A DNA stretch of 64,000 bases from Eledone cirrhosa (Eukaryota): assembly GCA_964016885.1 (NCBI GenBank), contig OZ024741.1, positions 24,986,001 through 25,050,000 of the forward strand, in the 5' to 3' direction. Position numbers and translations under genes: made by a program. Positions 6,001-33,500 of this stretch are shown here, one piece after another. The first letter of the stretch is position 1; the number at the start of each line of letters is the position of its first letter. Under the pieces are notes generated by a model. The model searched no databases and was not told the DNA's origin. It was given only the letters and a program-made list of their open reading frames with translations.

Positions 6001-7359
6001 AAACAACATAGACAGTGTCTTTTATTAGAAATATGGTAATGAAAGGGTTTAACAACATAAACAGTATCTTTTATTAGAAATGTGGTAATGAAAGGGTTAA
6101 ACAACATAGACAGTGTCTTTTATTAGAAATATGATAATGAAACGGTTAAACAACATAGACAGTGTCTTTTGTTAGAAATATGATAATGAAAGGGTTAAAC
6201 AACATAGACAGTGTCTTTTATTAGAAATATGGTAATGAAAGGGTTAAACAACATAGACAGTGTCTTTTATTAGAAATATGGTAATGAAAGGGTTAAACAA
6301 CATAGATAGTGTCTTTTATTAGAAATATGGTAATGAAAGGGTTAAACAACATAGACAGTGTCTTTTATTAGCAATATGGTAATGAAAGGGTTAAACAACA
6401 TAGACAGTGTCTTTTATTAGAAATATGGTAATGAAAGGGTTAAACAACATAGACAGTATCTTTTATTAGAAATATGGTAATGAAAGGGTTAAACAACATA
6501 GACAGTGTCTTTTATTAGAAATATGGTAATGAAAGGGTTAAACAACATAGACAGTGTCTTTTATTAGAAATATGGTAATGCAAGAGTTAAACAACATAGA
6601 CAGTGTCTTTTATTAGAAATATGGTAATGAAAGGGTTAAACAACATAGATAGTGTCTTTCATTAGAAATATGGTAATGAAAGGGTTAAATTACATAGGCA
6701 GAGTCTTCTATTAGAAATATCATAATGAAAGGGTTAAACAACATAGACAGTGTCTTTTATTAGAAATATGGTAATGAAAGTGCTAAACAACATAGACAGT
6801 GTCTTTTGTTAGAAATATGGTAATGAAAGTGTTAAACAACATAGACAGTGTCTTTTATTAGAAATGTGGTAATGAAAGTGTTAAACAACATAGACAGTAT
6901 CTTTTATTAGAAATGTGGTAATGAAAGTGTTAAACAACATAGACAGTATCTTTTATTAGAAATGTGGTAATGAAAGGGATAAAAAACATAGACAGTGTCT
7001 TTTATTAGAAATATGGTAATGAAAGTGTTAAACAACATAGACAGTGTCTTTTATTAGAAATATGGTAATGAAAGTGTTAAACAACATAGACAGTGTCTTT
7101 TATTAGAAATGTGGTAATGAAAGTGTTAAACAACATAGACAGTATCTTTTATTAGAAATGTGGTAATGAAAGGGTTAAACAACATAGACAGTGTCTTTTA
7201 TTAGAAATGTGGTAATGAAAGGGTTAAACAACATAGACAGTGTCTTTTATTAGAAATATGGTAATGAAAGGGTTAAACAACATAGACAGTGTCTTTTATT
7301 AGAAATATGGTAATGAAAGGGTTAAACAACATAGACAGTGTCTTTTATTAGAAATATGG

Positions 7360-10300
7360 TAATGAAAGGGTTAAACAACATAGACAGTGTCTTTTATTAG
7401 AAATATGATAATGAAAGGGTTAAACAACATAGACAGTGTCTTTTATTAGAAATATGGTAATGAAAGGGTTAAACAACATAGACAGTGTCTTTTATTAGAA
7501 ATAGGGTAATGAAAGGGTTAAACAACATAGACAGTGTCTTTTATTAGATATAGGGTAATGAAAGTGTTAAACAACATAGACAGTGTCTTTTATTAGAAAT
7601 ATGGTAATGAAAGGGTTAAACAACATAGACAGTGTCTTTTATTAGAAATATGGTAATGAAAGGGTTAAACAACATAGACAGTGTCTTTTATTAGATATAG
7701 GGTAATGAATGTGTTAAACAACATAGACAGTGTCTTTTATTAGAAATATGGTAATGAAAGGGTTAAACCACATAGACAGTGTCTTTTATTAGAAATATGG
7801 TAATGAAAGAGTTAAACAACATAGACAGTGTCTTTTATTAGATATAGGGTAAGGAAAGGGTTAAACAACATAGACAGTGTCTTTTATTAGAAATATGGTA
7901 ATGAAAGGGTTAAACAACATAGACAGTGTCTTTTATTAGAAATATGGTAATGAAAGGTTTAAACAACATAGACAGTGTCTTTTATTAGAAATATGGTAAT
8001 GAAAGGGTTAAACAACATAGACAGTGTCTTTTATTAGAAATATTGTAATGAAAGGGTTAAACAACATAGACAGTGTGTTTTGTTAGACATATGGTAATGA
8101 AAGGGTTAAACAACATAGACAGTGTCTTTTATTAGATATAGGGTAATGAAAGTGTTAAACAACATAGACAGTGTCTTTTATTAGAAATATGGTAATGAAA
8201 GGGTTAAACAACATAGACAGTGTCTTTTATTAGAAATATGGTAATGAAAGGGTTAAACAACATAGACAGTGTCTTTTATTAGAAATATGGTAATGAAAGG
8301 GTTAAACAACATAGACAGTGTCTTTTATTAAATATAGGGTAATGAAAGTGTTAAAAAACATAGACAGTGTCTTTTATTAGAAATATAATAATGAAAGGGT
8401 TAAACAACAGAAATATGGTAATGATAGGGTTAAACAACATACACAGTGTCTTTTATTAGAAATATGATAATGAAAGGGTTAAAAAACATAGACAGTGTCT
8501 TGTATTAGACATATGGTAATGAAAGGGTTAAACAACATAGACAGTGTCTTTTATTAGAAATATTGTAATGAAAGGGTTAAACAACATAGACAGTGTCTTT
8601 TATTAGAAATATGGTAATGAAAGTGTTAAACAACATAGACAGTGTCTTTTATTAGAAATACAACATAGACAGTGTCTTTTATTAGAAATATGGTAATGAA
8701 AGGGTTAAACAACATAGACAGTGTCTTTTATTAGAAATAGGGTAATGAAAGGGTTAAACAACATAGACAGTGTCTATTATTAGAAATATGATAATGAAAG
8801 GGTTAAACAACATAGACAGTGTCTTTTATTAGAAATATGATAATGAAAGGGTTAAACAACATAGACAGTGTCTTTTATTAGAAATATGGTAATGAAAGGG
8901 TTAAACAACATAGACAGTGTCTTTTATTAGAAATATGGTAATGAAAGGGTTAAACAACATAGATAGTGTCTTTTATTAGAAATATGGTAATGAAAGGGTT
9001 AAACAACATAGACAGTGTCTTTTATTAGCAATATGGTAATGAAAGGGTTAAACAACATAGACAGTGTCTTTTATTAGAAATGTGGTAATGAAAGTGTTAA
9101 ACAACATAGACAGTATCTTTTATTAGAAATGTGGTAATGAAAGGGTTAAACAACATAGACAGTGTCTTTTATTAGAAATGTGGTAATGAAAGGGGTAAAC
9201 AACATAGACAGTGTCTTTTATTAGAAATATGATAATGAAAGGGTTAAACAACATAGACAGTGTCTTTTATTAGAAATATGGTAATGAAAGGGTTAAACAA
9301 CATAGACAGTGTCTTTTATTAGAAATATGGTAATGAAAGGGTTAAACAACATAGACAGTGTCTTTTATTAGAAATATGATAATGAAAGGGTTAAACAACA
9401 TAGACAGTGTCTTTTATTAGAAATATGGTAATGAAAGGGTTAAACAACATAGACAGTGTCTTTTATTAGAAATAGGGTAATGAAAGGGTTAAACAACATA
9501 GACAGTGTCTTTTATTAGAAATATGATAATGAAAGGGTTAAACAACATAGACAGTGACTTTTATTAGAAATATGATAATGAAAGGGTTAAACAACATAGA
9601 CAGTGTCTTTTATTAGAAATATGGTAATGAAAGGGTTAAACAACATAGACAGTGTCTTTTATTAGAAATATGGTAATGAAAGGGTTAAACAACATAGATA
9701 GTGTCTTTTATTAGAAATATGGTAATGAAAGGGTTAAACAACATAGACAGTGTCTTTTATTAGAAATATGGTAATGAAAGGGTTAAACAACATAGACAGT
9801 GTCTTTTATTAGAAATATGGTAATGAAAGGGTTAAACAACATAGACAGTATCTTTTATTAGAAATATGGTAATGAAAGGGTTAAACAACATAGACAGTGT
9901 CTTTTATTAGAAATATGGTAATGAAAGGGTCAAACAACATAGAGAGTGTCTTTTATTAGAAATATGGTAATGCAAGAGTTAAACAACATAGACAGTGTCT
10001 TTTATTAGAAATATGGTAATGAAAGGGTTAAACAACATAGATAGTGTCTTTCATTAGAAATATGGTAATGAAAGGGTTAAATTACATAGGCAGTGTCTTC
10101 TATTAGAAATATGATAATGAAAGGGTTAAACAACATAGACAGTGTCTTTTATTAGAAATATGGTAATGAAAGTGTTAAACAACATAGACAGTGTCTTTTA
10201 TTAGAAATATGGTAATGAAAGTGTTAAACAACATAGACAGTGTCTTTTATTAGAAATGTGGTAATGAAAGTGTTAAACAACATAGACAGTATCTTTTATT

Positions 10301-13300
10301 AGAAATGTGGTAATGAAAGGGTTAAACAACATAGACAGTGTGTTTTATTAGAAATATGGTAATGAAAGGGTTAAACAACATAGACAGTGTCTTTTATTAG
10401 AAATATGGTAATGAAAGGGTTAAACAACATAGATAGTGTCTTTCATTAGAAATATGGTAATGAAAGGGTTAAATTACATAGGCAGTGTCTTCTATTAGAA
10501 ATATGATAATGAAAGGGTTAAACAACATAGACAGTGTCTTTTATTAGAAATATGGTAATGAAAGTGTTAAACAACATAGACAGTGTCTTTTATTAGAAAT
10601 ATGGTAATGAAAGTGTTAAACAACATAGACAGTGTCTTTTATTAGAAATGTGGTAATGAAAGTGTTAAACAACATAGACAGTATCTTTTATTAGAAATGT
10701 GGTACTGAAAGGGTTAAACAACATAGACAGTGTCTTTTATTAGAAATATGGTAATGAAAGGGTTAAACAACATAGACAGTGTCTTTTATTAGAAATATGG
10801 TAATGAAAGGGTTAAACAACATAGACAATGTCTTTTATTAGAAATATGGTAATGAAAGGGTTAAACAACATAGACAGTGTCTTTTATTAGAAATATGGTA
10901 ATGAAAGGGTTAAACAACATAGACAGTGTCTTTTATTGGAAATATGATAATGAAAGGGTTAAACAACATAGACAGTGTCTTTTATTAGAAATATGGTAAT
11001 GAAAGGGTTAAACAACATGGACAGTGTCTTTTATTAGAAATATGGTAATGAAAGGGTTAAACAACATAGACAGTGTCTTTTATTAGAAATATGATAATGA
11101 AACGGTTAAACAACATAGAGAGTGTCTTTTATTAGAAATATGGTAATGAAAGGGTTAAACAACATAGACAGTGTTTTTTATTAGAAATATGGTAATGAAA
11201 GGTTTAAACAACATAGACAGTGTCTTTTTTTAGAAATATGGTAATGAAAGGGTTAAACAACATAGACAGTGTCTTTTATTAGAAATATGGTAATGAAAGG
11301 GTTAAACAACATAGACAGTGTCTTTTATTAGAAATATGATAATGAAAGGTTTAAACAACATAGAGAGTGTCTTTTATTAGATATAGGGTAATGAATGTGT
11401 TAAACAACATAGACAGTGTCTTTCATTAGAAATATGGTAATGAAAGGGTTAAATTACATAGGCAGTGTCTTCTATTAGAAATATGATAATGAAAGGGTTA
11501 AACAACATAGACAGTGTCTTTTATTAGAAATATGGTAATGAAAGTGTTAAACAACATAGACAGTGTCTTTTATTAGAAATATGGTAATGAAAGTGTTAAA
11601 CAACATAGACAGTGTCTTTTATTAGAAATGTGGTAATGAAAGTGTTAAACAACATAGACAGTATCTTTTATTAGAAATATGGTAATGAAAGTGTTAAACA
11701 ACATAGACAGTGTCTTTTATTAGAAATGTGGTAATGAAAGTGTTAAACAACATAGACAGTATCTTTTATTAGAAATGTGATAATGAAAGGGTTAAACAAC
11801 ATAGACAGTGTCTTTTATTAGAAATATGATAATGAAAGGGTTAAACAACATAGACAGTGTCTTTTATTAGAAATATGGTAATGAAAGGGTTAAACAACAT
11901 AGACAGTGTCTTTTATTAGAAATAGGGTAATGAAAGGGTTAAACAACATAGACAGTGTCTTTTATTAGATATAGGGTAATGAAAGTGTTAAACAACATAG
12001 ACAGTGTCTTTTATTAGAAATATGGTAATGAAAGGGTTAAACAACATAGACAGTGTCTTTTATTAGAAATATGGTAATGAAAGGGTTAAACAACATAGAC
12101 AGTGTCTTTTATTAGATATAGGGTAATGAATGTGTTAAACAACATAGACAGTGTCTTTTATTAGAAATATGGTAATGAAAGGGTTAAACAACATAGACAG
12201 TGTCTTTTATTAGAAATATGGTAATGAAAGAGTTAAACAACATAGACAGTGTCTTTTATTAGATATAGGGTAAGGAAAGGGTTAAACAACATAGACAGTG
12301 TCTTTTATTAGAAATATGGTAATGAAAGGGTTAAACAACATAGACAGTGTCTTTTATTAGAAATATGGTAATGAAAGGTTTAAACAACATAGACAGTGTC
12401 TTTTATTAGAAATATGGTAATGAAAGGGTTAAACAACATAGACAGTGTCTTTTATTAGAAATATTGTAATGAAAGGGTTAAACAACATAGACAGTGTGTT
12501 TTGTTAGACATATGGTAATGAAAGGGTTAAACAACATAGACAGTGTCTTTTATTAGATATAGGGTAATGAAAGTGTTAAACAACATAGACAGTGTCTTTT
12601 ATTAGAAATATGGTAATGAAAGGGTTAAACAACATAGACAGTGTCTTTTATTAGAAATATGGTAATGAAAGGGTTAAACAACATAGACAGTGTCTTTTAT
12701 TAGAAATATGGTAATGAAAGGGTTAAACAACATAGACAGTGTCTTTTATTAAATATAGGGTAATGAAAGTGTTAAAAAACATAGACAGTGTCTTTTATTA
12801 GAAATATAATAATGAAAGGGTTAAACAACAGAAATATGGTAATGATAGGGTTAAACAACATACACAGTGTCTTTTATTAGAAATATGATAATGAAAGGGT
12901 TAAAAAACATAGACAGTGTCTTGTATTAGACATATGGTAATGAAAGGGTTAAACAACATAGACAGTGTCTTTTATTAGAAATATTGTAATGAAAGGGTTA
13001 AACAACATAGACAGTGTCTTTTATTAGAAATATGGTAATGAAAGTGTTAAACAACATAGACAGTGTCTTTTATTAGAAATACAACATAGACAGTGTCTTT
13101 TATTAGAAATATGGTAATGAAAGGGTTAAACAACATAGACAGTGTCTTTTATTAGAAATAGGGTAATGAAAGGGTTAAACAACATAGACAGTGTCTATTA
13201 TTAGAAATATGATAATGAAAGGGTTAAACAACATAGACAGTGTCTTTTATTAGAAATATGATAATGAAAGGGTTAAACAACATAGACAGTGTCTTTTATT

Positions 13301-16200
13301 AGAAATATGGTAATGAAAGGGTTAAACAACATAGACAGTGTCTTTTATTAGAAATATGGTAATGAAAGGGTTAAACAACATAGATAGTGTCTTTTATTAG
13401 AAATATGGTAATGAAAGGGTTAAACAACATAGACAGTGTCTTTTATTAGCAATATGGTAATGAAAGGGTTAAACAACATAGACAGTGTCTTTTATTAGAA
13501 ATGTGGTAATGAAAGTGTTAAACAACATAGACAGTATCTTTTATTAGAAATGTGGTAATGAAAGGGTTAAACAACATAGACAGTGTCTTTTATTAGAAAT
13601 GTGGTAATGAAAGGGTTAAACAACATAGACAGTGTCTTTTATTAGAAATATGGTAATGAAAGGGTTAAACAACATAGACAGTGTCTTTTATTAGAAATAT
13701 GGTAATGAAAGGGTTAAACAACATAGACAGTGTCTTTTATTAGAAATATGGTAATGAAAGGGTTAAACAACATAGACAGTGTCTTTTATTAGAAATATGA
13801 TAATGAAAGGGTTAAACAACATAGACAGTGTCTTTTATTAGAAATATGGTAATGAAAGGGTTAAACAACATAGACAGTGTCTTTTATTAGAAATAGGGTA
13901 ATGAAAGGGTTAAACAACATAGACAGTGTCTTTTATTAGAAATATGATAATGAAAGGGTTAAACAACATAGACAGTGACTTTTATTAGAAATATGATAAT
14001 GAAAGGGTTAAACAACATAGACAGTGTCTTTTATTAGAAATATGGTAATGAAAGGGTTAAACAACATAGACAGTGTCTTTTATTAGAAATATGGTAATGA
14101 AAGGGTTAAACAACATAGATAGTGTCTTTTATTAGAAATATGGTAATGAAAGGGTTAAACAACATAGACAGTGTCTTTTATTAGAAATATGGTAATGAAA
14201 GGGTTAAACAACATAGACAGTGTCTTTTATTAGAAATATGGTAATGAAAGGGTTAAACAACATAGACAGTATCTTTTATTAGAAATATGGTAATGAAAGG
14301 GTTAAACAACATAGACAGTGTCTTTTATTAGAAATATGGTAATGAAAGGGTCAAACAACATAGAGAGTGTCTTTTATTAGAAATATGGTAATGCAAGAGT
14401 TAAACAACATAGACAGTGTCTTTTATTAGAAATATGGTAATGAAAGGGTTAAACAACATAGATAGTGTCTTTCATTAGAAATATGGTAATGAAAGGGTTA
14501 AATTACATAGGCAGTGTCTTCTATTAGAAATATGATAATGAAAGGGTTAAACAACATAGACAGTGTCTTTTATTAGAAATATGGTAATGAAAGTGTTAAA
14601 CAACATAGACAGTGTCTTTTATTAGAAATATGGTAATGAAAGTGTTAAACAACATAGACAGTGTCTTTTATTAGAAATGTGGTAATGAAAGTGTTAAACA
14701 ACATAGACAGTATCTTTTATTAGAAATGTGGTAATGAAAGGGTTAAACAACATAGACAGTGTGTTTTATTAGAAATATGGTAATGAAAGGGTTAAACAAC
14801 ATAGACAGTGTCTTTTATTAGAAATATGGTAATGAAAGGGTTAAACAACATAGATAGTGTCTTTCATTAGAAATATGGTAATGAAAGGGTTAAATTACAT
14901 AGGCAGTGTCTTCTATTAGAAATATGATAATGAAAGGGTTAAACAGCATAGACAGTGTCTTTTATTAGAAATATGGTAATGAAAGTGTTAAACAACATAG
15001 ACAGTGTCTTTTATTAGAAATATGGTAATGAAAGTGTTAAACAACATAGACAGTGTCTTTTATTAGAAATGTGGTAATGAAAGTGTTAAACAACATAGAC
15101 AGTATCTTTTATTAGAAATGTGGTAATGAAAGGGTTAAACAACATAGACAGTGTCTTTTATTAGAAATATGGTAATGAAAGGGTTAAACAACATAGACAG
15201 TGTCTTTTATTAGAAATATGGTAATGAAAGGGTTAAACAACATAGACAATGTCTTTTATTAGAAATATGGTAATGAAAGGGTTAAACAACATAGACAGTG
15301 TCTTTTATTAGAAATATGGTAATGAAAGGGTTAAACAACATAGACAGTGTCTTTTATTGGAAATATGATAATGAAAGGGTTAAACAACATAGACAGTGTC
15401 TTTTATTAGAAATATGGTAATGAAAGGGTTAAACAACATGGACAGTGTCTTTTATTAGAAATATGGTAATGAAAGGGTTAAACAACATAGACAGTGTCTT
15501 TTATTAGAAATATGATAATGAAACGGTTAAACAACATAGAGAGTGTCTTTTATTAGAAATATGGTAATGAAAGGGTTAAACAACATAGACAGTGTTTTTT
15601 ATTAGAAATATGGTAATGAAAGGTTTAAACAACATAGACAGTGTCTTTTTTTAGAAATATGGTAATGAAAGGGTTAAACAACATAGACAGTGTCTTTTAT
15701 TAGAAATATGGTAATGAAAGGGTTAAACAACATAGACAGTGTCTTTTATTAGAAATATGATAATGAAAGGTTTAAACAACATAGAGAGTGTCTTTTATTA
15801 GATATAGGGTAATGAATGTGTTAAACAACATAGACAGTGTCTTTCATTAGAAATATGGTAATGAAAGGGTTAAATTACATAGGCAGTGTCTTCTATTAGA
15901 AATATGATAATGAAAGGGTTAAACAACATAGACAGTGTCTTTTATTAGAAATATGGTAATGAAAGTGTTAAACAACATAGACAGTGTCTTTTATTAGAAA
16001 TATGGTAATGAAAGTGTTAAACAACATAGACAGTGTCTTTTATTAGAAATGTGGTAATGAAAGTGTTAAACAACATAGACAGTATCTTTTATTAGAAATA
16101 TGGTAATGAAAGTGTTAAACAACATAGACAGTGTCTTTTATTAGAAATGTGGTAATGAAAGTGTTAAACAACATAGACAGTATCTTTTATTAGAAATGTG
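7360..16200. repeat. Tandem duplication of a 4421-bp satellite block (91 monomers, two shortened by 19 bp)
   Basis: Diagnostic deletions and variants recur at offset 4421 (8410/12831, 8661/13082, 7501/11922, 11381/15802); 91x49-38=4421. Boundaries are approximate. Confidence 0.9.
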
Positions 16201-19200
16201 GTAATGAAAGGGTTAAACAACATAGACAGTGTCTTTAATTAGAAATATGGTAATGAAAGGGTTAAACAACATAGACAATGTCTTTTATTAGAAATATGGT
16301 AATGAAAGGGTTAAACAACATAGACAGTGTCTTTTATTAGAAATATGGTAATGAAAGGGTTAAACAACATAGACAGTGTCTTTTATTGGAAATATGATAA
16401 TGAAAGGGTTAAACAACATAGACAGTGTCTTTTATTAGAAATATGGTAATGAAAGGGTTAAACAACATGGAGAGTGTCTTTTATTAGAAATATGGTAATG
16501 AAAGGGTTAAACAACATAGACAGTGTCTTTTATTAGAAATATGATAATGAAACGGTTAAACAACATAGAGAGTGTCTTTTATTAGAAATATGGTAATGAA
16601 AGGGTTAAACAACATAGACAGTGTTTTTTATTAGAAATATGGTAATGAAAGGTTTAAACAACATAGACAGTGTCTTTTTTTAGAAATATGGTAATGAAAG
16701 GATTAAACAACATAGACAGTGTCTTTTATTAGAAATATGGTAATGAAAGGGTTTAACAACATAAACAGTATCTTTTATTAGAAATGTGGTAATGAAAGGG
16801 TTAAACAACATAGACAGTGTCTTTTATTAGAAATATGATAATGAAACGGTTAAACAACATAGAGAGTGTCTTTTATTAGAAATATGGTAATGAAAGGGTT
16901 AAACAACATAGACAGTGTTTTTTATTAGAAATATGGTAATGAAAGGTTTAAACAACATAGACAGTGTCTTTTATTAGAAATATGGTAATGAAAGCGTTAA
17001 ACAACATAGACAGTGTCTTTTATTAGAAATATGGTAATGAAAGGGTTACACAACATAGACAGTGTCTTTTATTAGAAATATGGTAATGAAAGGGTTAAAC
17101 AACATAGACAGTGTCTTTTATTAGAAATATGGTAATGAAAGGGTTAAACAACATAGACAGTGTCTTTTATTAGAAATATGATAATGAAAGGGTTAAACAA
17201 CATAGACAGTGTCTTTTATTAGAAATATGATAATGAAAGGGTTAAACAACATAGACAGTGTCTTTTATTAGAAATATGATAATGAAAGGGTTAAACAACA
17301 TAGACAGTGTCTTTTATTAGAAATATGATAATGAAAGGGTTAAACAACATAGACAGTGTCTTTTATTAGAAATATGGTAATGAAAGGGTTAAACAACATA
17401 GACAGTGTCTTTTATTAGAAGTATGGTAATGAAAGGGTTAAACAACATAGATAGTGTCTTTTATTAGAAATATGGTAATGAAAGGGTTAAACAACATAGA
17501 CAGTGTCTTTTATTAGAAATATGGTAATGAAAGGGTTAAACAACATAGACAGTGTCTTTTATTAGAAATATGGTAATGAAAGCGTTAAACAACATAGACA
17601 GTGTCTTTTATTAGAAATATGGTAATGAAAGGGTTACACAACATAGACAGTGTCTTTTATTAGAAATATGGTAATGAAAGGGTTAAACAACATAGACAGT
17701 GTCTTTTATTAGAAATATGGTAATGAAAGGGTTAAACAACATAGACAGTGTCTTTTATTAGAAATATGATAATGAAAGGGTTAAACAACATAGACAGTGT
17801 CTTTTATTAGAAATATGGTAATGAAAGGGTTAAACAACATAGACAGTGTCTTTTATTAGAAATAGGGTAATGAAAGGGTTAAACAACATAGACAGTGTCT
17901 TTTATTAGAAATATGATAATGAAAGGGTTAAACAACATAGACAGTGTCTTTTATTAGAAATATGATAATGAAAGGGTTAAACAACATAGACAGTGTCTTT
18001 TATTAGAAATATGATAATGAAAGGGTTAAACAACATAGACAGTGTCTTTTATTAGAAATATGGTAATGAAAGGGTTAAACAACATAGACAGTGTCTTTTA
18101 TTAGAAATATGGTAATGAAAGGGTTAAACAACATAGACAGTATCTTTTATTAGAAATATGGTAATGAAAGGGTTAAACAACATAGACAGTGTCTTTTATT
18201 AGAAATATGGTAATGAAAGGGTTAAACAACATAGACAGTGTCTTTTATTAGAAATATGGTAATGCAAGAGTTAAACAACATAGACAGTGTCTTTTATTAG
18301 AAATATGGTAATGAAAGGGTTATACACCATAGATAGTGTCTTTCATTAGAAATATGGTAATGAAAGGGTTAAATTACATAGGCAGTGTCTTCTATTAGAA
18401 ATATGATAATGAAAGGGTTAAACAACATAGACAGTGTCTTTTATTAGAAATATGGTAATGAAAGTGTTAAACAACATAGACAGTGTCTTTTATTAGAAAT
18501 GTGGTAATGAAAGTGTTAAACAACATAGACAGTATCTTTTATTAGAAATGTGGTAATGAAAGGGTTAAACAACATAGACAGTGTCTTTTATTAGAAATAT
18601 GGTAATGAAAGGGTTAAACAACATAGACAGTGTCTTTTATTAGAAATATGGTAATGAAAGGGTTAAACAACATAGACAATGTCTTTTATTAGAAATATGG
18701 TAATGAAAGGGTTAAACAACATAGACAGTGTCTTTTATTAGAAATATGGTAATGAAAGGGTTAAACAACATAGACAGTGTCTTTTATTGGAAATATGATA
18801 ATGAAAGGGTTAAACAACATAGACAGTGTCTTTTATTAGAAATATGGTAATGAAAGGGTTAAACAACATGGACAGTGTCTTTTATTAGAAATATGGTAAT
18901 GAAAGGGTTAAACAACATAGACAGTGTCTTTTATTAGAAATATGATAATGAAACGGTTAAACAACATAGAGAGTGTCTTTTATTAGAAATATGGTAATGA
19001 AAGGGTTAAACAACATAGACTGTGTTTTTTATTAGAAATATGGTAATGAAAGGTTTAAACAACATAGACAGTGTCTTTTATTAGAAATATGGTAATGAAA
19101 GGGTTACACAACATAGACAGTGTCTTTTATTAGAAATATGGTAATGAAAGGGTTAAACAACATAGACAGTGTCTTTTATTAGAAATATGGTAATGAAATG

Positions 19201-19838
19201 GTTAAACAACATAGACAGTGTCTTTTATTAGAAATATGATAATGAAAGGGTTAAACAACATAGACAGTGTCTTTTATTAGAAATATGGTAATGAAAGGGT
19301 TAAACAACATAGACAGTGTCTTTTATTAGAAATAGGGTAATGAAAGGGTTAAACAACATAGACAGTGTCTTTTATTAGAAATATGGTAATGAAAGGTTTA
19401 AACAACATAGACAGTGTCTTTTATTAGAAATATGGTAATGAAAGGTTTAAACAACATAGACAGTGTCTTTTATTAGAAATATGGTAATGAAAGCATTAAA
19501 CAACATAGACAGTGTCTTTTATTAGAAATATGGTAATGAAAGGGTTACACAACATAGACAGTGTCTTTTATTAGAAATATGGTAATGAAAGGGTTAAACA
19601 ACATAGACAGTGTCTTTTATTAGAAATATGGTAATGAAAGGGTTAAACAACATAGACAGTGTCTTTTATTAGAAATATGATAATGAAAGGGTTAAACAAC
19701 ATAGACAGTGTGTTCTATTAGAAATATGGTAATGAAAGGGTTAAACAACATAGACATTGTCTTTTATTAGATATAGGGTAATGAAAGTGTTAAACAACAT
19801 AGACAGTGTCTTTTCTTAGAAATATGGTAATGAAAGGG

Positions 19839-19854
19839 TTAAACAACATAGATA
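19839..19854 (+). repeat. Target-site duplication of copy 1, left (TTAAACAACATAGATA)
   Basis: The same 16-mer occurs at 21545-21560 and breaks the monomer phase as a duplication would. T21545 also matches the element, so the TSD is 15 or 16 bp. Confidence 0.85.
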
Positions 19855-21545
19855 TATTTCTTTTATTTGCCACTAGGGCATCAAAAGTGGGACAAGTACA
19901 AAGGGGGGAGTTTACACAAAAAGGCGTCCTCAATAAGGAGAAGGCAATAACAAAATATAAAAATAAAATAAGATATAACAAAAAATAAAATTTTTAACAA
20001 AATCCTCAATAGAGAGGAGGCGCCTTGGGGGGTCGCACACACCCCCGAAAAAAGTGTGCAACCCTTCTCCTCAGGAGCACAGAGAAGGGGTGCTCCCTTG
20101 GTCTTTCATCTTCCTCACCTATAGTCTGATGTAGAGTGAAGGCCCATTCACACGGGCCATTCTCGCCACTTTCACCCATCTTTCATAGAAACGGCTGGGG
20201 TGCAGCACCTCTCTCTCCATCCTGATCCTTCTTCCGAAATGATATCGGAAGAAACGGACCAGTTGTTGGCCAGAGAGAAAGGTGCCCGACCTCAGTCCTT
20301 TCAGACGCGTCCACCATACAACCTCTTTCGCCATGGCTATTACGCACAGAAACACCGCCTCTGCTTCATCTTTGAAGGGGGGAGGCGGCTTGATCATTAC
20401 AATAGACTCGGTGGTCAACCGGATCGGTCCCACCCTTGACAGCAGTTGTTCGACATAGCCCCACAGATCGGCTACGCCCGAGCAGTGTACTAATGCGTGT
20501 TCAACGGTTTCCTCGTCGCACACGCATCTGGGACAGATCTTTTTGGCGGGGTCCCTACCCGGGCGCCCGTGTCTGTAGAGCCTTTCTCGAACGGGTAAAG
20601 CCCCTCGGTAGCACTGCCAGGCCAGGGACTTCTGGAAGTTGTCCATAGGTCCCGGGCTGAATGTCCTACCGAACAGGCTGGCCAGTTCGTCCTCCTCCAT
20701 GTCTAGGGCTTCTCCGAGGGCGTCGTCGCACCTGCTGCGTACCAGCCCTCTATAGAATGTTGCGGTGGAGTCTCCACTGATAACCGGATCCGCCTGCCAG
20801 AGGGCGGTGAGCGCCTGGGCACACTCAGTGTGCCAGGCGCCCAGTTTTCTCGGTCTTTGCTTGACCCAGGATTGCAGCTCGGTGAGTGAGACGAGTCTGG
20901 GAAAGGTTCGTCTCACAAACGAGGCCCACACCGGTTGTCCGGTGAGGAATACGTAGAGGTGCCGTAGCCTTAATGCGTGTTTACGCATCATTAGCCACGG
21001 CATCCCCAGCCCTCCTTTCGAAGGGTGTTGACAGCAGATGGATCTCCTCACCATAGGAGCCCGCCTCTTCCAAAGGAATTGGAAGAGCGCGCGCTCCATC
21101 TTGGTGAGGGTTTCCCTTGGGCAGGGCACTACGGTCAGGCGGTAGTAGATGACGGACGCTATGTAGGTGTTCGCCACCTCCGCCCGACCTTTCAGGGATA
21201 GTTTGCAACTGGCCCACTTCTGGGTCAGTGCAAACACCCTGTTCGTAACCTCCGCCCAGTTTTTCTCCACCTGGAGGTCCGGTCCGAACCAGACCCCGAG
21301 CAACTTCACCGGGCCCTCCGTCCAGCGTCCGACGACGCTATCGGAGGGCATCGGTCTGCCCCTCCACGTGCCGAGTTGCAAACCGATCGACTTGTCCCGG
21401 TTCAGCTTAGCCCCTGTGAACTTTTCGTACTCCTCCAGTAAGGTGCCGACCGCCTCGATTTCGCAGGCCGTCGACACCATTACTGTCACGTCATCGGCGT
21501 AGGCCGACACCGCTTTCCGCAATCCCGGTTCCAAAGGGATGCCCT
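19855..21545 (-). mobile_element. 5'-truncated Tx1-like (L1 clade) non-LTR retrotransposon, copy 1
   Basis: Matches 40715-42405 at offset 20860, with 5 substitutions seen by eye. Contains the 3' UTR and the ORF2 C-terminal part, is truncated inside the RT just before YADD, and is flanked by a TSD. Confidence 0.96.
20119..21545 (-). pseudogene. Truncated ORF2 (partial RT with YADD, plus C-terminal CCHC zinc-binding domain)
   Basis: The 478-aa ORF matches the C-terminus of the full ORF2. Its MLFK start is supplied by satellite sequence, and the endonuclease and N-terminal RT are missing. Confidence 0.92.
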
Positions 21546-21560
21546 TAAACAACATAGATA
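21545..21560 (+). repeat. Target-site duplication of copy 1, right (TTAAACAACATAGATA)
   Basis: Duplicate of 19839-19854, followed by GTGTCTTTTATT, the normal continuation of the monomer. Confidence 0.85.
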
Positions 21561-24500
21561 GTGTCTTTTATTAGAAATATCGTAATGAAAGGGTTAAACA
21601 ACATAGACAGTGTCTTTTATTAGCAATATGGTAATGAAAGGGTTAAACAACATAGATAGTGTCTTTCATTAGAAATATGGTAATGAAAGGGTTAAATTAC
21701 ATAGGCAGTGTCTTCTATTAGAAATATCATAATGAAAGCGTTAAACAACATAGACAGTGTCTTTTATTAGAAATATGGTAATGAAAGTGTTAAACAACAT
21801 AGACAGTGTCTTTTATTAGAAATATGGTAATGAAAGTGTTAAACAACATAGACAGTGTCTTTTATTAGAAATGTGGTAATGAAAGTGTTAAACAACATAG
21901 ACAGTATCTTTTATTAGAAATGTGGTAATGAAAGTGTTAAACAACATAGACAGTATCTTTTATTAGAAATGTGGTAATGAAAGGGATGAAAAACATAGAC
22001 AGTGTCTTTTATTAGAAATATGGTAATGAAAGTGTTAAACAACATAGACAGTGTCTTTTATTAGAAATATGGTAATGAAAGGGTTAAACAACATAGATAG
22101 TGTCTTTCATTAGAAATATGGTAATGAAAGGGTTAAATTACATAGGCAGTGTCTTCTATTAGAAATATGATAATGAAAGGGTTAAACAACATAGACAGTG
22201 TCTTTTATTAGAAATATGGTAATGAAAGTGTTAAACAACATAGACAGTGTCTTTTATTAGAAATATGGTAATGAAAGTGTTAAACAACATAGACAGTGTC
22301 TTTTATTAGAAATGTGGTAACGAAAGTGTTAAACAACATAGACAGTATCTTTTATTAGAAATGTGGTAATGAAAGGGTTAAACAACATAGACAGTGTCTT
22401 TTATTAGAAATATGGTAATGAAAGGGTTAAACAACATAGACAGTGTCTTTTATTAGAAATATGGTAATGAAAGGGTTAAACAACATAGACAATGTCTTTT
22501 ATTAGAAATATGGTAATGAAAGGGTTAAACAACATAGACAGTGTCTTTTATTAGAAATATGGTAATGCAAGAGTTAAACAACATAGACAGTGTCTTTTAT
22601 TAGAAATATGGTAATGAAAGGGTTAAACAACATAGATAGTGTCTTTCATTGGAAATATGGTAATGAAAGGGTTAAATTACATAGGCAGTGTCTTCTATTA
22701 GAAATATGATAATGAAAGGGTTAAACAACATAGACAGTGTCTTTTATTAGAAATATGGTAATGAAAGTGTTAAACAACATAGACAGTGTCTTTTATTAGA
22801 AATATGGTAATGAAAGTGTTAAACAACATAGACAGTGTCTTTTATTAGAAATGTGGTAATGAAAGTGTTAAACAACATAGACAGTATCTTTTATTAGAAA
22901 TGTGGTAATGAAAGGGTTAAACAACATAGACAGTGTCTTTTATTAGAAATATGGTAATGAAAGGGTTTAACAACATAGACAGTGTCTTTTATTAGAAATA
23001 TGGTAATGAAAGGGTTAAACAACATAGACAGTGTCTTTTATTAGAAATATGGTAATGAAAGGGTTAAACAACATGGACAGTGTCTTTTATTAGAAATATG
23101 GTAATGAAAGGGTTAAACAACATAGACAGTGTCTTTTATTAGAAATATGATAATGAAACGGTTAAACAACATAGAGAGTGTCTTTTATTAGAAATATCGT
23201 AATGAAAGGGTTAAACAACATAGACATTGTTTTTTATTAGAAATATGGTAATGAAAGGTTTAAACAACATAGACAGTGTCTTTTTTTAGAAATATGGTAA
23301 TGAAAGGGTTAAACAACATAGACAGTGTCTTCTATTAGAAATATGGTAATGAAAGGGTTAAACAACATAGACAGTGTCTTTTATTAGAAATATGATAATG
23401 AAAGGTTTAAACAACATAGAGAGTGTCTTTTATTAGATATAGGGTAATGAATGTGTTAAACAACATAGACAGTGTCTTTCATTAGAAATATGGTAATGAA
23501 AGGGTTAAATTACATAGGCAGTGTCTTCTATTAGAAATATGATAATGAAAGGGTTAAACAACATAGACAGTGTCTTTTATTAGAAATATGGTAATGAAAG
23601 TGTTAAACAACATAGACAGTGTCTTATATTAGAAATGTGGTAATGAAAGTGTTAAACAACATAGACAGTATCTTTTATTAGAAATGTGGTAATGAAAGGG
23701 TTAAACAACATAGACAGTGTCTTTTATTAGGAATATGGTAATGAAAGGGTTAAACAACATAGACAGTGTCTTTTATTAGAAATATGGTAATGAAAGGGTT
23801 AAACAACATAGACAATGTCTTTTATTAGAAATATGGTAATGAAAGGGTTAAACAACATAGACAGTGTCTTTTATTAGAAATATGGTAATGAAACGGTTAA
23901 ACAACATAGACAGTGTCTTTTATTGGAAATATGATAATGAAAGGGTTAAACAACATAGACAGTGTCTTTTATTAGAAATATGGTAATGAAAGGGTTAAAC
24001 AACATGGACAGTGTCTTTTATTAGAAATATGGTAATGAAAGGGTTAAACAACATAGACAGTGTCTTTCATTAGAAATATGGTAATGAAAGGGTTAAATTA
24101 CATAGGCAGTGTCTTCTATTAGAAATATGATAATGAAAGGGTTAAACAACATAGACAGTGTCTTTTATTAGAAATATGGTAATGAAAGTGTTAAACAACA
24201 TAGACAGTGTCTTTTATTAGAAATATGGTAATGAAAGTGTTAAACAACATAGACAGTGTCTTTTATTAGAAATGTGGTAATGAAAGTGTTAAACAACATA
24301 GACAGTATCTTTTATTAGAAATATGGTAATGAAAGTGTTAAACAACATAGACAGTGTCTTATATTAGAAATGTGGTAATGAAAGTGTTAAACAACATAGA
24401 CAGTATCTTTTATTAGAAATGTGGTAATGAAAGGGTTAAACAACATAGACAGTGTCTTTTATTAGGAATATGGTAATGAAAGGGTTAAACAACATAGACA

Positions 24501-27500
24501 GTGTCTTTTATTAGAAATATGGTAATGAAAGGGTTAAACAACATAGACAATGTCTTTTATTAGAAATATGGTAATGAAAGGGTTAAACAACATAGACAGT
24601 GTCTTTTATTAGAAATATGGTAATGAAACGGTTAAACAACATAGACAGTGTCTTTTATTGGAAATATGATAATGAAAGGGTTAAACAACATAGACAGTGT
24701 CTTTTATTAGAAATATGGTAATGAAAGGGTTAAACAACATGGACAGTGTCTTTTATTAGAAATATGGTAATGAAAGGGTTAAACAACATAGACAGTGTCT
24801 TTTATTAGAAATATGATAATGAAACGGTTAAACAACATAGAGAGTGTCTTTTATTAGAAATATGGTAATGAAAGGGTTAAACAACATAGACAGTGTTTTT
24901 TATTAGAAATATGGTAATGAAAGGTTTAAACAACATAGACAGTGTCTTTTATTAGAAATATGGTAATGAAAGCGTTAAACAACATAGACAGTGTCTTTTA
25001 TTAGAAATATGGTAATGAAAGGGTTACACAACATAGACAGTGTCTTTTATTAGAAATGTGGTAATGAAAGTGTTAAACAACATAGACAGTATCTTTTATT
25101 AGAAATATGGTAATGAAAGTGTTAAACAACATAGACAGTGTCTTTTATTAGAAATGTGGTAATGAAAGTGTTAAACAACATAGACAGTATCTTTTATTAG
25201 AAATGTGGTAATGAAAGGGTTAAACAACATAGACAGTGTCTTTTATTAGAAATATGGTAATGAAAGGGTTAAACAACATAGACAGTGTCTTTTATTAGAA
25301 ATATGGTAATGAAAGGGTTAAACAACATAGACAATGTCTTTTATTAGAAATATGGTAATGAAAGGGTTAAACAACATAGACAGTGTCTTTTATTAGAAAT
25401 ATGGTAATGAAAGGGTTAAACAACATAGACAGTGTCTTTTATTGGAAATATGATAATGAAAGGGTTAAACAACATAGACAGTGTCTTTTATTAGAAATAT
25501 GGTAATGAAAGGGTTAAACAACATGGACAGTGTCTTTTATTAGAAATATGGTAATGAAAGGGTTAAACAACATAGACAGTGTCTTTTATTAGAAATATGA
25601 TAATGAAACGGTTAAACAACATAGACAGTGTCTTTTATTAGAAATATGGTAATGAAAGGGTTAAACAACATAGACAGTGTTTTTTATTAGAAATATGGTA
25701 ATGAAAGGTTTAAACAACATAGACAGTGTCTTTTTTTAGAAATATGGTAATGAAAGGATTAAACAACATAGACAGTGTCTTTTATTAGAAATATGGTAAT
25801 GAAAGGGTTTAACAACATAAACAGTATCTTTTATTAGAAATATGGTAATGAAAGTGTTAAACAACATAGACAGTGTCTTTTATTAGAAATGTGGTAATGA
25901 AAGTGTTAAACAACATAGACAGTATCTTTTATTAGAAATGTGGTAATGAAAGGGTTAAACAACATAGACAGTGTCTTTTATTAGAAATATGGTAATGAAA
26001 GGGTTAAACAACATAGACAGTGTCTTTTATTAGAAATATGGTAATGAAAGGGTTAAACAACATAGACAATGTCTTTTATTAGAAATATGGTAATGAAAGG
26101 GTTAAACAACATAGACAGTGTCTTTTATTAGAAATATGGTAATGAAAGGGTTAAACAACATAGACAGTGTCTTTTATTGGAAATATGATAATGAAAGGGT
26201 TAAACAACATAGACAGTGTCTTTTATTAGAAATATGGTAATGAAAGGGTTAAACAACATGGACAGTGTCTTTTATTAGAAATATGGTAATGAAAGGGTTA
26301 AACAACATAGACAGTGTCTTTTATTAGAAATATGATAATGAAACGGTTAAACAACATAGACAGTGTCTTTTATTAGAAATATGGTAATGAAAGGGTTAAA
26401 CAACATAGACAGTGTTTTTTATTAGAAATATGGTAATGAAAGGTTTAAACAACATAGACAGTGTCTTTTTTTAGAAATATGGTAATGAAAGGATTAAACA
26501 ACATAGACAGTGTCTTTTATTAGAAATATGGTAATGAAAGGGTTTAACAACATAAACAGTATCTTTTATTAGAAATGTGGTAATGAAAGGGTTAAACAAC
26601 ATAGACAGTGTCTTTTATTAGAAATATGATAATGAAACGGTTAAACAACATAGAGAGTGTCTTTTATTAGAAATATGGTAATGAAAGGGTTAAACAACAT
26701 AGACAGTGTTTTTTATTAGAAATATGGTAATGAAAGGTTTAAACAACATAGACAGTGTCTTTTATTAGAAATATGGTAAAGAAAGCGTTAAACAACATAG
26801 ACAGTGTCTTTTATTAGAAATATGGTAATGAAAGGGTTACACAACATAGACAGTGTCTTTTATTAGAAATATGGTAATGAAAGGGTTAAACAACATAGAC
26901 AGTGTCTTTTATTAGAAATATGGTAATGAAAGGGTTAAACAACATAGACAGTGTCTTTTATTAGAAATATGATAATGAAAGGGTTAAACAACATAGACAG
27001 TGTCTTTTATTAGAAATATGGTAATGAAAGGGTTAAACAACATAGACAGTGTCTTTTATTAGAAATAGGGTAATGAAAGGGTTAAACAACATAGACAGTG
27101 TCTTTTATTAGAAATATGATAATGAAAGGGTTAAACAACATAGACAGTGTCTTTTATTAGAAATATGATAATGAAAGGGTTAAACAACATAGACAGTGTC
27201 TTTTATTAGAAATATGGTAATGAAAGGGTTAAACAACATAGACAGTGTCTTTTATTAGAAATATGGTAATGAAAGGGTTAAACAACATAGATAGTGTCTT
27301 TTATTAGAAATATAGTAATGAAAGGGTTAAACAACATAGACAGTGTCTTTTATTAGCAATATGGTAATGAAAGGGTTAAACAACATAGACAGTGTCTTTT
27401 ATTAGAAATGTGGTAATGAAAGGGTTAAACAACATAGACAGTGTCTTTTATTAGAAATGTGGTAATGAAAGGGTTAAACAACATGGACAGTGTCTTTTAT

Positions 27501-30500
27501 TAGAAATATGGTAATGAAAGGGTTAAACAACATAGACAGTGTCTTTTATTAGAAATATGATAATGAAACGGTTAAACAACATAGAGAGTGTCTTTTATTA
27601 GAAATATGGTAATGAAAGGGTTAAACAACATAGACAGTGTTTTTTATTAGAAATATGGTAATGAAAGGTTTAAACAACATAGACAGTGTCTTTTTTTAGA
27701 AATATGGTAATGAAAGGGTTTAACAACATAAACAGTATCTTTTATTAGAAATGTGGTAATGAAAGGGTTAAACAACATAGACAGTGTCTTTTATTAGAAA
27801 TATGATAATGAAACGGTTAAACAACATAGAGAGTGTCTTTTATTAGAAATATGGTAATGAAAGGGTTAAACAACATAGACAGTGTTTTTTATTAGAAATA
27901 TGGTAATGAAAGGTTTAAACAACATAGACAGTGTCTTTTATTAGAAATATGGTAATGAAAGCGTTAAACAACATAGACAGTGTCTTTTATTAGAAATATG
28001 GTAATGAAAGGGTTACACAACATAGACAGTGTCTTTTATTAGAAATGTGGTAATGAAAGTGTTAAACAACATAGACAGTATCTTTTATTAGAAATATGGT
28101 AATGAAAGTGTTAAACAACATAGACAGTGTCTTTTATTAGAAATATGGTAATGAAAGGGTTAAACAACATAGACAGTGTCTTTTATTGGAAATATGATAA
28201 TGAAAGGGTTAAACAACATAGACAGTGTCTTTTATTAGAAATATGGTAATGAAAGGGTTAAACAACATGGACAGTGTCTTTTATTAGAAATATGGTAATG
28301 AAAGGGTTAAACAACATAGACAGTGTCTTTTATTAGAAATATGATAATGAAACGGTTAAACAACATAGAGAGTGTCTTTTATTAGAAATATGGTAATGAA
28401 AGGGTTAAACAACATAGACAGTGTTTTTTATTAGAAATATGGTAATGAAAGGTTTAAACAACATAGACAGTGTCTTTTTTTAGAAATATGGTAATGAAAG
28501 GATTAAACAACATAGACAGTGTCTTTTATTAGAAATATGGTAATGAAAGGGTTTAACAACATAAACAGTATCTTTTATTAGAAATGTGGTAATGAAAGGG
28601 TTAAACAACATAGACAGTGTCTTTTATTAGAAATATGATAATGAAACGGTTAAACAACATAGAGAGTGTCTTTTATTAGAAATATGGTAATGAAAGGGTT
28701 AAACAACATAGACAGTGTTTTTTATTAGAAATATGGTAATGAAAGGTTTAAACAACATAGACAGTGTCTTTTATTAGAAATATGGTAAAGAAAGCGTTAA
28801 ACAACATAGACAGTGTCTTTTATTAGAAATATGGTAATGAAAGGGTTACACAACATAGACAGTGTCTTTTATTAGAAATATGGTAATGAAAGGGTTAAAC
28901 AACATAGACAGTGTCTTTTATTAGAAATATGGTAATGAAAGGGTTAAACAACATAGACAGTGTCTTTTATTAGAAATATGATAATGAAAGGGTTAAACAA
29001 CATAGACAGTGTCTTTTATTAGAAATATGGTAATGAAAGGGTTAAACAACATAGACAGTGTCTTTTATTAGAAATAGGGTAATGAAAGGGTTAAACAACA
29101 TAGACAGTGTCTTTTATTAGAAATATGATAATGAAAGGGTTAAACAACATAGACAGTGTCTTTTATTAGAAATATGATAATGAAAGGGTTAAACAACATA
29201 GACAGTGTCTTTTATTAGAAATATGGTAATGAAAGGGTTAAACAACATAGATAGTGTCTTTTATTAGAAATATAGTAATGAAAGGGTTAAACAACATAGA
29301 CAGTGTCTTTTATTAGCAATATGGTAATGAAAGGGTTAAACAACATAGACAGTGTCTTTTATTAGAAATGTGGTAATGAAAGGGTTAAACAACATAGACA
29401 GTGTCTTTTATTAGAAATGTGGTAATGAAAGGGTTAAACAACATGGACAGTGTCTTTTATTAGAAATATGGTAATGAAAGGGTTAAACAACATAGACAGT
29501 GTCTTTTATTAGAAATATGATAATGAAACGGTTAAACAACATAGAGAGTGTCTTTTATTAGAAATATGGTAATGAAAGGGTTAAACAACATAGACAGTGT
29601 TTTTTATTAGAAATATGGTAATGAAAGGTTTAAACAACATAGACAGTGTCTTTTTTTAGAAATATGGTAATGAAAGGATTAAACAACATAGACAGTGTCT
29701 TTTATTAGAAATATGGTAATGAAAGGGTTTAACAACATAAACAGTATCTTTTATTAGAAATGTGGTAATGAAAGGGTTAAACAACATAGACAGTGTCTTT
29801 TATTAGAAATATGATAATGAAACGGTTAAACAACATAGAGAGTGTCTTTTATTAGAAATATGGTAATGAAAGGGTTAAACAACATAGACAGTGTTTTTTA
29901 TTAGAAATATGGTAATGAAAGGTTTAAACAACATAGACAGTGTCTTTTATTAGAAATATGGTAATGAAAGCGTTAAACAACATAGACAGTGTCTTTTATT
30001 AGAAATATGGTAATGAAAGGGTTACACAACATAGACAGTGTCTTTTATTAGAAATGTGGTAATGAAAGTGTTAAACAACATAGACAGTATCTTTTATTAG
30101 AAATATGGTAATGAAAGTGTTAAACAACATAGACAGTGTCTTTTATTAGAAATGTGGTAATGAAAGTGTTAAACAACATAGACAGTTTCTTTTATTAGAA
30201 ATGTGGTAATGAAAGGGTTAAACAACATAGACAGTGTCTTTTATTAGAAATATGGTAATGAAAGGGTTAAACAACATAGACAGTGTCTTTTATTAGAAAT
30301 ATGGTAATGAAAGGGTTAAACAACATAGACAATGTCTTTTATTAGAAATATGGTAATGAAAGGGTTAAACAACATAGACAGTGTCTTTTATTAGAAATAT
30401 GGTAATGAAAGGGTTAAACAACATAGACAGTGTCTTTTATTGGAAATATGATAATGAAAGGGTTAAACAACATAGACAGTGTCTTTTATTAGAAATATGG

Positions 30501-33500
30501 TAATGAAAGGGTTAAACAACATGGACAGTGTCTTTTATTAGAAATATGGTAATGAAAGGGTTAAACAACATAGACAGTGTCTTTTAAATATGATAATGAA
30601 ACGGTTAAACAACATAGAGAGTGTCTTTTATTAGAAATATGGTAATGAAAGGGTTAAACAACATAGACAGTGTTTTTTATTAGAAATATGGTAATGAAAG
30701 GTTTAAACAACATAGACAGTGTCTTTTTTTAGAAATATGGTAATGAAAGGATTAAACAACATAGACAGTGTCTTTTATTAGAAATATGGTAATGAAAGGG
30801 TTTAACAACATAAACAGTATCTTTTATTAGAAATGTGGTAATGAAAGGGTTAAACAACATAGACAGTGTCTTCTATTAGAAATATGATAATGAAACGGTT
30901 AAACAACATAGAGAGTGTCTTTTATTAGAAATATGGTAATGAAAGGGTTAAACAACATAGACAGTGTTTTTTATTAGAAATATGGTAATGAAAGGTTTAA
31001 ACAACATAGACAGTGTCTTTTATTAGAAATATGGTAAAGAAAGCGTTAAACAACATAGACAGTGTCTTTTATTAGAAATATGGTAATGAAAGGGTTACAC
31101 AACATAGACAGTGTCTTTTATTAGAAATATGGTAATGAAAGGGTTAAACAACATAGACAGTGTCTTTTATTAGAAATATGGTAATGAAAGGGTTAAACAA
31201 CATAGACAGTGTCTTTTATTAGAAATATGATAATGAAAGGGTTAAACAACATAGACAGTGTCTTTTATTAGAAATATGGTAATGAAAGGGTTAAACAACA
31301 TAGACAGTGTCTTTTATTAGAAATAGGGTAATGAAAGGGTTAAACAACATAGACAGTGTCTTTTATTAGAAATATGATAATGAAAGGGTTAAACAACATA
31401 GACAGTGTCTTTTATTAGAAATATGATAATGAAAGGGTTAAACAACATAGACAGTGTCTTTTATTAGAAATATGGTAATGAAAGGGTTAAACAACATAGA
31501 CAGTGTCTTTTATTAGAAATATGGTAATGAAAGGGTTAAACAACATAGATAGTGTCTTTTATTAGAAATATAGTAATGAAAGGGTTAAACAACATAGACA
31601 GTGTCTTTTATTAGCAATATGGTAATGAAAGGGTTAAACAACATAGACAGTGTCTTTTATTAGAAATGTGGTAATGAAAGGGTTAAACAACATAGACAGT
31701 GTCTTTTATTAGAAATGTGGTGATGAAAGGGTTAAACAACATAGACAGTGTCTTTTATTAGAAATATGGTAATGAAAGGGTTAAACAACATAGACAGTGT
31801 CTTTTATTAGAAATATGGTAATGAAAGGGTTAAACAACATAGACAGTGTCTTTTATTAGAAATATGGTAATGAAAGGGTTAAACAACATAGACAGTGTCT
31901 TTTATTAGAAATATGATAATGAAAGGGTTAAACAACATAGACAGTGTCTTTTATTAGAAATATGGTAATTAAAGGGTTAAACAACATAGACAGTGTCTTT
32001 TATTAGAAATAGGGTAATGAAAGGGTTAAACAACATAGACAGTGTCTTTTATTAGAAATATGATAATGAAAGGGTTAAACAACATAGACAGTGTCTTTTA
32101 TTAGAAATATGATAATGAAAGGGTTAAACAACATAGACAGTGTCTTTTATTAGAAATATGGTAATGAAAGGGTTAAACAACATAGACAGTGTCTTTTATT
32201 AGAAATATGGTAATGAAAGGGTTAAACAACATAGACAGTGTCTTTTATTAGAAATATGGTAATGAAAGGGTTAAACAACATAGACAGTGTCTTTTATTAG
32301 AAATATGGTAATGAAAGGGTTAAACAACATAGATAGTGTCTTTTATTAGAAATATGGTAATGAAAGGGTTAAACAACATAGACAGTGTCTTTTATTAGAA
32401 ATAGGGTAATGAAAGGGTTAAACAACATAGACAGTGTCTTTTATTAGAAATATGATAATGAAAGGGTTAAACAACATAGACAGTGTCTTTTATTAGAAAT
32501 ATGATAATGAAAGGGTTAAACAACATAGACAGTGTCTTTTATTAGAAATATGGTAATGAAAGGGTTAAACAACATAGACAGTGTTTTTTATTAGAAATAT
32601 GGTAATGAAAGGTTTAAACAACATAGACAGTGTCTTTTATTAGAAATATGGTAATGAAAGCGTTAAACAACATAGACAGTGTCTTTTATTAGAAATATGG
32701 TAATGAAAGGGTTACACAACATAGACAGTGTCTTTTATTAGAAATATGGTAATGAAAGGGTTAAACAACATAGACAGTGTCTTTTATTAGAAATATGGTA
32801 ATGAAAGGGTTAAACAACATAGACAGTGTCTTTTATTAGAAATATGATAATGAAACGGTTAAACAACATAGACAGTGTCTTTTATTAGAAATATGGTAAT
32901 GAAAGGGTTTAACAACATAAACAGTATCTTTTATTAGAAATGTGGTAATGAAAGGGTTAAACAACATAGACAGTGTCTTTTATTAGAAATATGATAATGA
33001 AACGGTTAAACAACATAGAGAGTGTCTTTTATTAGAAATATGGTAATGAAAGGGTTAAACAACATAGACAGTGTCTTTTATTAGAAATAGGGTAATGAAA
33101 GGGTTAAACAACATAGACAGTGTCTTTTATTAGAAATATGATAATGAAAGGGTTAAACAACATAGACAGTGTCTTTTATTAGAAATATGATAATGAAAGG
33201 GTTAAACAACGTAGACAGTGTCTTTTATTAGAAATATGGTAATGAAAGGGTTAAACAACATAGACAGTGTCTTTTATTAGAAATATGGTAATGAAAGGGT
33301 TAAACAACATAGATAGTGTCTTTTATTAGAAATATAGTAATGAAAGGGTTAAACAACATAGACAGTGTCTTTTATTAGCAATATGGTAATGAAAGGGTTA
33401 AACAACATAGACAGTGTCTTTTATTAGAAATGTGGTAATGAAAGGGTTAAACAACATAGACAGTGTCTTTTATTAGAAATGTGGTAATGAAAGGGTTAAA

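Follow-up and report, generated by a model that had tools for sequence, protein, structure and literature searches.

Whether a single-base difference among the monomers of a satellite can determine where a retrotransposon enters it is the question raised by this locus. The window, by which we mean the whole 64-kb stretch of Eledone cirrhosa DNA that was analysed (1..64000), is occupied by an unstranded AT-rich satellite array of 49-bp periodicity, with about 1150 monomers and duplicated blocks of 0.8-4.6 kb, and this array is broken twice by GC-richer inserts. A sequence-only reading of the left junction of one of these inserts (19845-19860) had proposed that a minority monomer variant determines the susceptibility of the array to insertion.

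Two copies of one LINE in a satellite array

Ungapped monomers (n = 1151) account for 56,364 of the 56,573 satellite bases in the window. With the two junction monomers left out, the common variant ATAGACAG (hereafter GAC) is found in 920 of 1149 monomers and the variant ATAGATAG (hereafter GAT) in 67 (5.8%), which bears out the majority and minority previously assigned to them, and random monomers diverge from each other by 5.5%. The array contains a 4421-bp tandem duplication, with 12 mismatches in 4604 bp (window 7321-16345 and others), and many duplicated blocks of 0.8-1.9 kb throughout; no fixed higher-order repeat was found in the block map of the 64-kb window. Partial monomers of 30 bp lie near 8379, 8630, 12800 and 13051, and a monomer at 47351-47395 lacks four core bases, CATAG being followed directly by TGTC, a gap equivalent to the loss of one tetranucleotide unit by slippage, at the monomer position used by the element. 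The minus strand of the monomer also carries TTAACCC, which we take to recall the TTAA site and terminus of piggyBac-type elements; a non-autonomous piggyBac is the target of Xenopus Tx1 (PMC4494074).

Both inserts are minus-strand copies of a single two-ORF, APE-type LINE, and both are young, with 5 differences spread along an overlap of about 1.7 kb. Copy 1 (19855..21545) is 5'-truncated inside the reverse transcriptase domain. Copy 2 (40715 to ~46435) is full-length and comprises, all on the minus strand, a 3' UTR (40715..40978) with AATAAA 7 nt before its end and no poly(A) tail, an uninterrupted ORF2 of about 1145 aa (40979..44416) with an APE endonuclease, a reverse transcriptase and a C-terminal zinc-binding motif, an intact ORF1 of 592 aa (44441..46219) with an Asn-rich tract and one CCHC knuckle, and a 5' UTR (46220..46435). 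Pfam matches in ORF2 cover Exo_endo_phos (residues 22-226) and RVT_1 (511-754), with zf-RVT (975-1031) below the cut-off; by motif inspection the APE catalytic motifs are present and intact. The zf-CCHC match of ORF1 likewise falls below the cut-off (E 0.051), and its look-alikes in the Atlas, a lead only, belong to CCHC and ZCCHC3-RBD clusters (scores 0.89-0.92) and carry zf-CCHC. An (AAC)n tract at 45914-46040 encodes the Asn-rich stretch of ORF1, whose length differs from copy to copy in other sequencing runs. The 3' UTR folds no better than its shuffles (z -1.5), and no Rfam match was found within 40500-46700.

A profile of 19 sequences searched against the PDB ranks human L1 ORF2p (E 1e-105) above R2 (E 1e-37); a single-sequence PDB search with the endonuclease returned one match, which was spurious. 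Together with the ORF2 domains, the presence of two ORFs, and the 5' truncation and target-site duplication (TSD) of copy 1, this ranking establishes the element as an APE-type non-LTR retrotransposon of the L1 group, closer to L1 than to R2. The closest named relatives are from Argonauta hians (67% identity in the reverse transcriptase region) and Acanthosepion pharaonis (52%), and in a tree of 19 reverse transcriptase rows the element groups with the Argonauta and Acanthosepion proteins (support 100/100). An ORF1 with a CCHC zinc knuckle is a feature of the Tx1 clade, to which the element likely belongs; the rows of the tree include no named Tx1 reference (Tx1L, Keno, Kibi or Koshi). L1-Tx1 families are listed as recently active in Octopus vulgaris (PMC13282606), and general background on Tx1 is given elsewhere (PMC3747384, PMC9004415).

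Junction monomers and their paralogues

The 3' junctions of the two copies are identical, lying after ATAGATA at monomer position 36. At copy 1 the satellite runs through CATAGATA and is followed by element sequence starting TATTTC. The left copy of its TSD (19840..19854, plus strand) ends in ATAGATA, and the right copy (21546..21560, plus strand) is of the GAT variant and continues into satellite GTGTC, as the sequence-only reading had described, so that the T of GAT is target-derived at this copy. The TSD measures 15 bp, or 16 bp with a 1-nt overlap (a shared T). The monomer to the left of copy 2 (40679..40714, plus strand) also ends in ATAGATA, in the same register as copy 1. The probability of finding GAT at two of two junctions by chance is 0.0034 if the events are independent, 0.006 if any shared minority core is admitted and 0.012 if the two junctions may share whichever minority allele at positions 20-36.

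The block at 35053-36992 matches 38777-40716, with 2 mismatches across 35130-36990 (1861 bp), and ends in a GAT monomer; position 36981 does lie exactly 3724 bp upstream of 40705 in this duplicated block, as previously reported, and is one of several GAT paralogues of the copy 2 left flank, of which 27292 and 31550 match that flank equally well over 600 bp. Of 14 occurrences of the upstream context of that flank, 11 are followed by GAT. The empty GAT monomer concerned (36955..37003, plus strand) gives the best match on its upstream side to the left flank of copy 2 (offset 3724) and on its downstream side to the right flank of copy 1 (offset 15430), the latter match, 21546-22567 against 36976-37997, having 6 mismatches in 1022 bp; downstream of 36981, the sequence matches the right flank of copy 1 and not that of copy 2. 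Since the same empty monomer stands behind both proofs of a pre-existing GAT, the two may derive from a single insertion, each showing one side of it, after an exchange of flanks by way of the 1.7 kb common to both copies, in which case n may be 1 and the probability of GAT at the junction becomes 0.058. The left flank of copy 1 is a mosaic: the ten closest matches to its last 150 bp are all GAC and distant (5-7 mismatches), and its segment 19496-19690 is an exact match to a GAT-bearing haplotype with three monomers skipped, so that it does not decide between a GAT and a GAC origin. We clearly favour two separate insertions over one, because a full-length copy cannot arise from one that is truncated and has a clean TSD, and because an exchange of flanks requires extra crossovers.

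No TSD was found at the junctions of copy 2. At its 5' junction a (GATA)4 run (46436..46451, plus strand) lies outside the satellite monomer, which itself contains no run of this type, and overlaps by ATA with the next monomer, a rare ATATACAG type present here as its right half (46449..46468, plus strand) and of which four other, intact copies occur at 47037, 47768, 48503 and 58940. The right flank of copy 2 is hence (GATA)4 followed by this rare monomer and not a GAT monomer. The string ATAGATATA is present at both ends of the copy (40708-40716 and 46445-46453); we considered it as a TSD and rejected it, as the array holds no such empty monomer.

Sequencing runs provide a view of the family beyond the window. 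The element is present, whole or in part, in 20 of 24 listed runs, six of which hold half of its words or more, and none of the 24 is an RNA run holding the element. Contigs from four of the 24 runs were aligned to the element. In one of them, X1, 32,834 contigs align, which makes the family very abundant and suggests that it is not confined to the 49-bp satellite of the window. Contig joints in X1 also show satellite variants, and the displayed loose ends in X1 and a second run, X4, run on into non-satellite sequence, which argues against a satellite-specific family. We examined 24 of 2496 loose ends, which do not constitute a random sample; 11 of them are downstream, on the plus strand, where the TSD of a truncated copy is expected. 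ATAGATAG occurs in two of these 11, at 41108 in X4, where it continues into a GATA/GACA repeat, and at 41563 in X1, where it follows a diverged stretch. ATAGATA is absent from the other nine, several of which are diverged element or AT-rich matches, and at least two ends without GATA (X4 41130 and 41957) look like true junctions. No 3' flank of another copy was found among the 24 of 2496 ends. One X4 contig joins the 3' UTR to a GATA run across 16 other letters, an ambiguous case that could be diverged UTR. At the 5' end, the alignment of a near-identical X4 contig breaks off at 46435, whereas that of a diverged X1 contig (record 7), with 18 differences in 169 letters, extends across the GATA run as far as 46448, which suggests that this run is flanking sequence rather than a constant component of the element. 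The GATA-type flanks of other copies are no more than suggestive of a GATA preference.

More distant relatives contribute little on this point. Exact searches with the 3' end of the element retrieved 0 stretches from either metagenome or viral contigs, and no relative emerged when viral contigs were scanned at the protein level. The scan of genome contigs yielded 42 loci and that of metagenome contigs 80 loci, kept from 91 stretches, all of them relatives at only about 21-51% identity in the best segment. (GATA)3 or (TATC)3 occurs in 0 of these 122 loci, which at such identities are uninformative on the target of the LINE family in the window. A separate observation is that 39 of the 42 genome-collection loci (L001-L037, L040, L041) come from a single record, CAXXMW01, labelled as a bacterial metagenome-assembled genome (Arenicella). 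In it, copies of a related LINE (ORF2 identity 40-43%) follow one another at short intervals, apparently head to tail, and the end of every copy lies a few bases beyond AATAAA. The loci probably represent DNA of an animal host that was assigned to a bacterial bin, and their arrangement hints at tandem-array formation by this LINE lineage.

Selection of the insertion site

The reading that we prefer, and to which we give an even chance of being correct, is that a young and abundant LINE of L1/Tx1 type encodes an endonuclease with a putative preference for ATAGATA^G, a unit of (GATA)n, and that the satellite is an off-target. The common ATAGACAG monomer is devoid of the ATAGATA^G step, which the 5.8% GAT variant would supply once. 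The plus strand would be nicked at or near this step, priming reverse transcription of an RNA that ends just after AATAAA; placing the first nick here (after 19854 at copy 1), as the sequence-only reading had done, agrees with the geometry of target-primed reverse transcription (TPRT) for an element on the minus strand, and the same geometry would put the second nick about 15 bp leftward, on the minus strand. At copy 1 the outcome can be read directly as a 5' truncation with a TSD of 15-16 bp. At copy 2, a full-length cDNA carrying (GATA)4 from a donor located in a GATA repeat may have been joined to another monomer through ATA microhomology or, alternatively, the flanks may have been exchanged later by unequal crossover. 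The 49-bp satellite would be an occasional off-target and not the home of the family, with the GAT monomer as the only (GATA)n look-alike in the array.

This preference is proposed on the strength of GAT at two of two junctions against 67 of 1149 monomers (P 0.003-0.012), the target-derived GAT in the right TSD of copy 1 and the GAT paralogues of the copy 2 left flank, the (GATA)4 at the 5' end of copy 2, the GATA-type flanks in X4 and X1, the intact APE motifs, and the precedents of microsatellite-targeting Tx1 families and of base sensitivity in R1Bm. Against it stand the shared empty monomer at 36955, the GAC-like left flank of copy 1, the right flank of copy 2, the nine of 11 downstream loose ends without ATAGATA and the absence of (GATA)3 from all 122 distant loci. 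The earlier proposal that the GAT variant determines insertion is therefore upheld in part: the shared register, the pre-existing GAT and the GATA-type flanks elsewhere speak for it, only two junctions are available, and the 67 empty GAT monomers in the window make the variant at most permissive.

A preference for the same variant might instead arise from pairing between RNA and DNA, with donors sited in (GATA)n giving read-through transcripts that end in (UAUC)n, loose nicking and favoured use of primers ending in ATAGATA; a GAC mismatch two bases from the primer end would then block the start of reverse transcription. The lack of a poly(A) tail, the 3' end running straight into TATCTAT and the (GATA)4 at copy 2, which suggests a co-transcribed flanking repeat, are what such pairing would lead one to expect, and the last 13 nt of the element have a 9-nt run, TCTTTTATT, in common with the satellite to the right of the nick (element 40715-40727 against satellite 36991-37003), so that insertion nearly rebuilds the monomer. 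That run, however, consists largely of the AATAAA signal (P 0.058 given AATAAA; 7 of 49 registers pass), neither 3' junction contains extra GATA units, and in the cases already described it is chiefly the endonuclease that decides the target (PMC4494074, PMC1919474). We consider pairing an unlikely selector. Protection of the common monomers by the AGACA-n-TGTCT dyad, whether as a hairpin or through a bound protein, with any breaking change exposing the site, is far less probable still. The dyad is present, and the C>T change does break it and create a pair of ATAG units, as the sequence-only reading had observed; the importance attached to it did not hold up, as the dyad is broken in 340 of 1149 monomers (P 0.088 for two of two), both junctions have the same variant, and the hairpin, with a mere -1.2 to -1.4 kcal/mol, does not outperform shuffled sequences for either variant (z 0.66 and 0.15).

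The remaining account dispenses with any variant preference: a single chance insertion in a GAT monomer, with flanks exchanged afterwards, by an endonuclease cutting near CATAGA in any monomer and with the TA at the junction derived from the element. The agreement of the copy 2 left flank and the copy 1 right flank with the one empty site at 36955 suits it, as do the GAC paralogues of the copy 1 left flank, the ATATACAG variant on the right of copy 2 and an array full of duplicated blocks. It nevertheless needs a second insertion and one or two crossovers on top of a coincidence of 5.8%, and it leaves unexplained both the (GATA)4 at copy 2 and the GATA-type flanks in other runs. The 5 differences are spread along the overlap, the truncated copy with its clean TSD cannot be the source of the full-length one, and the exact match of 19496-19690 to a GAT-bearing haplotype also goes against it; we regard it as improbable. 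Whether exerted by the endonuclease or by RNA pairing, a preference for GAT would on balance be the probable explanation of this locus, as judged from the sequence of one or two events and a few flanks outside the window.

Known systems and significance

Human L1 carries a poly(A) tail and cleaves at TTTT/A. Its ORF2p (PDB 8uw3, 8sxt, 1vyb) is the best structure match to the family profile, over the endonuclease and reverse transcriptase, and the two elements have in common the logic of TPRT and the range of TSD lengths, whereas the LINE in the window lacks poly(A) and has a CCHC-type ORF1. Parallels are found among Tx1 families. Kibi, Koshi and the crocodilian families, whose hosts are fish and crocodilians, have (TC)n, (TTC)n, (TTCC)n and (TTTC)n as their named targets, satellites ('Sat') are among the known Tx1 targets (Fig. 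3 legend), and a family is classed as microsatellite-specific when more than 20% of its copies are flanked by the target repeat (PMC4494074). Like the LINE described here, Kibi/Koshi-type elements are non-LTR retrotransposons inserted into a short tandem repeat, which in their case is chosen mainly by the endonuclease; unlike their named targets, the putative target here is (GATA)n; the host lineage is a cephalopod one, and the target is seen by way of a variant of a 49-bp satellite.

L1-CS in the CUS-TR24 satellite of Cuscuta europaea is likewise an L1-group element found at fixed monomer positions, with ends offset by about 13-16 bp (PMC8091179). There the target is a conserved feature of the consensus monomer, and satellite-associated copies make up 91% of the elements (PMC8091179), whereas the LINE in the window appears to use a minority variant only and its family seems dispersed. 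Sensitivity to individual bases has precedent in R1Bm, where some single or double substitutions nearly abolish endonuclease cleavage (PMC1919474), and SART1 of Bombyx mori enters related repeats at low efficiency (PMC7265360). These elements resemble the one proposed here in that single target bases matter for APE-type LINEs and, for SART1, in the inefficient use of related repeats; they differ in belonging to the R1 clade, with telomeric or rDNA targets established experimentally. SART1, moreover, needs three repeat units, against just two ATAG units in the GAT monomer.

Satellite-fixed insertion and single-base sensitivity of LINE endonucleases are thus already published, and no principle is changed by this locus. 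A (GATA)n-targeting LINE or a variant-specific satellite insertion was not found in the literature searched, outside which lie Repbase and most subscription papers. If the preferred reading is true, (GATA)n would be added to the list of Tx1 targets, and the array would constitute a natural experiment in which about a thousand near-identical sites with single-base differences allow the target choice of a LINE to be read from genomes, linking the turnover of satellite sequence to transposon load. A fuller picture, which we put forward tentatively and hold somewhat less probable than its opposite, is that of a (GATA)n-targeting octopod family of Tx1 type that enters the satellite only through monomers rendered GATA-like by the C>T change. 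As satellite homogenisation spread or removed the GAT variant, the array would become more or less open to invasion, and (GATA)n brought in at the 5' ends of new copies would seed further, better targets inside it.
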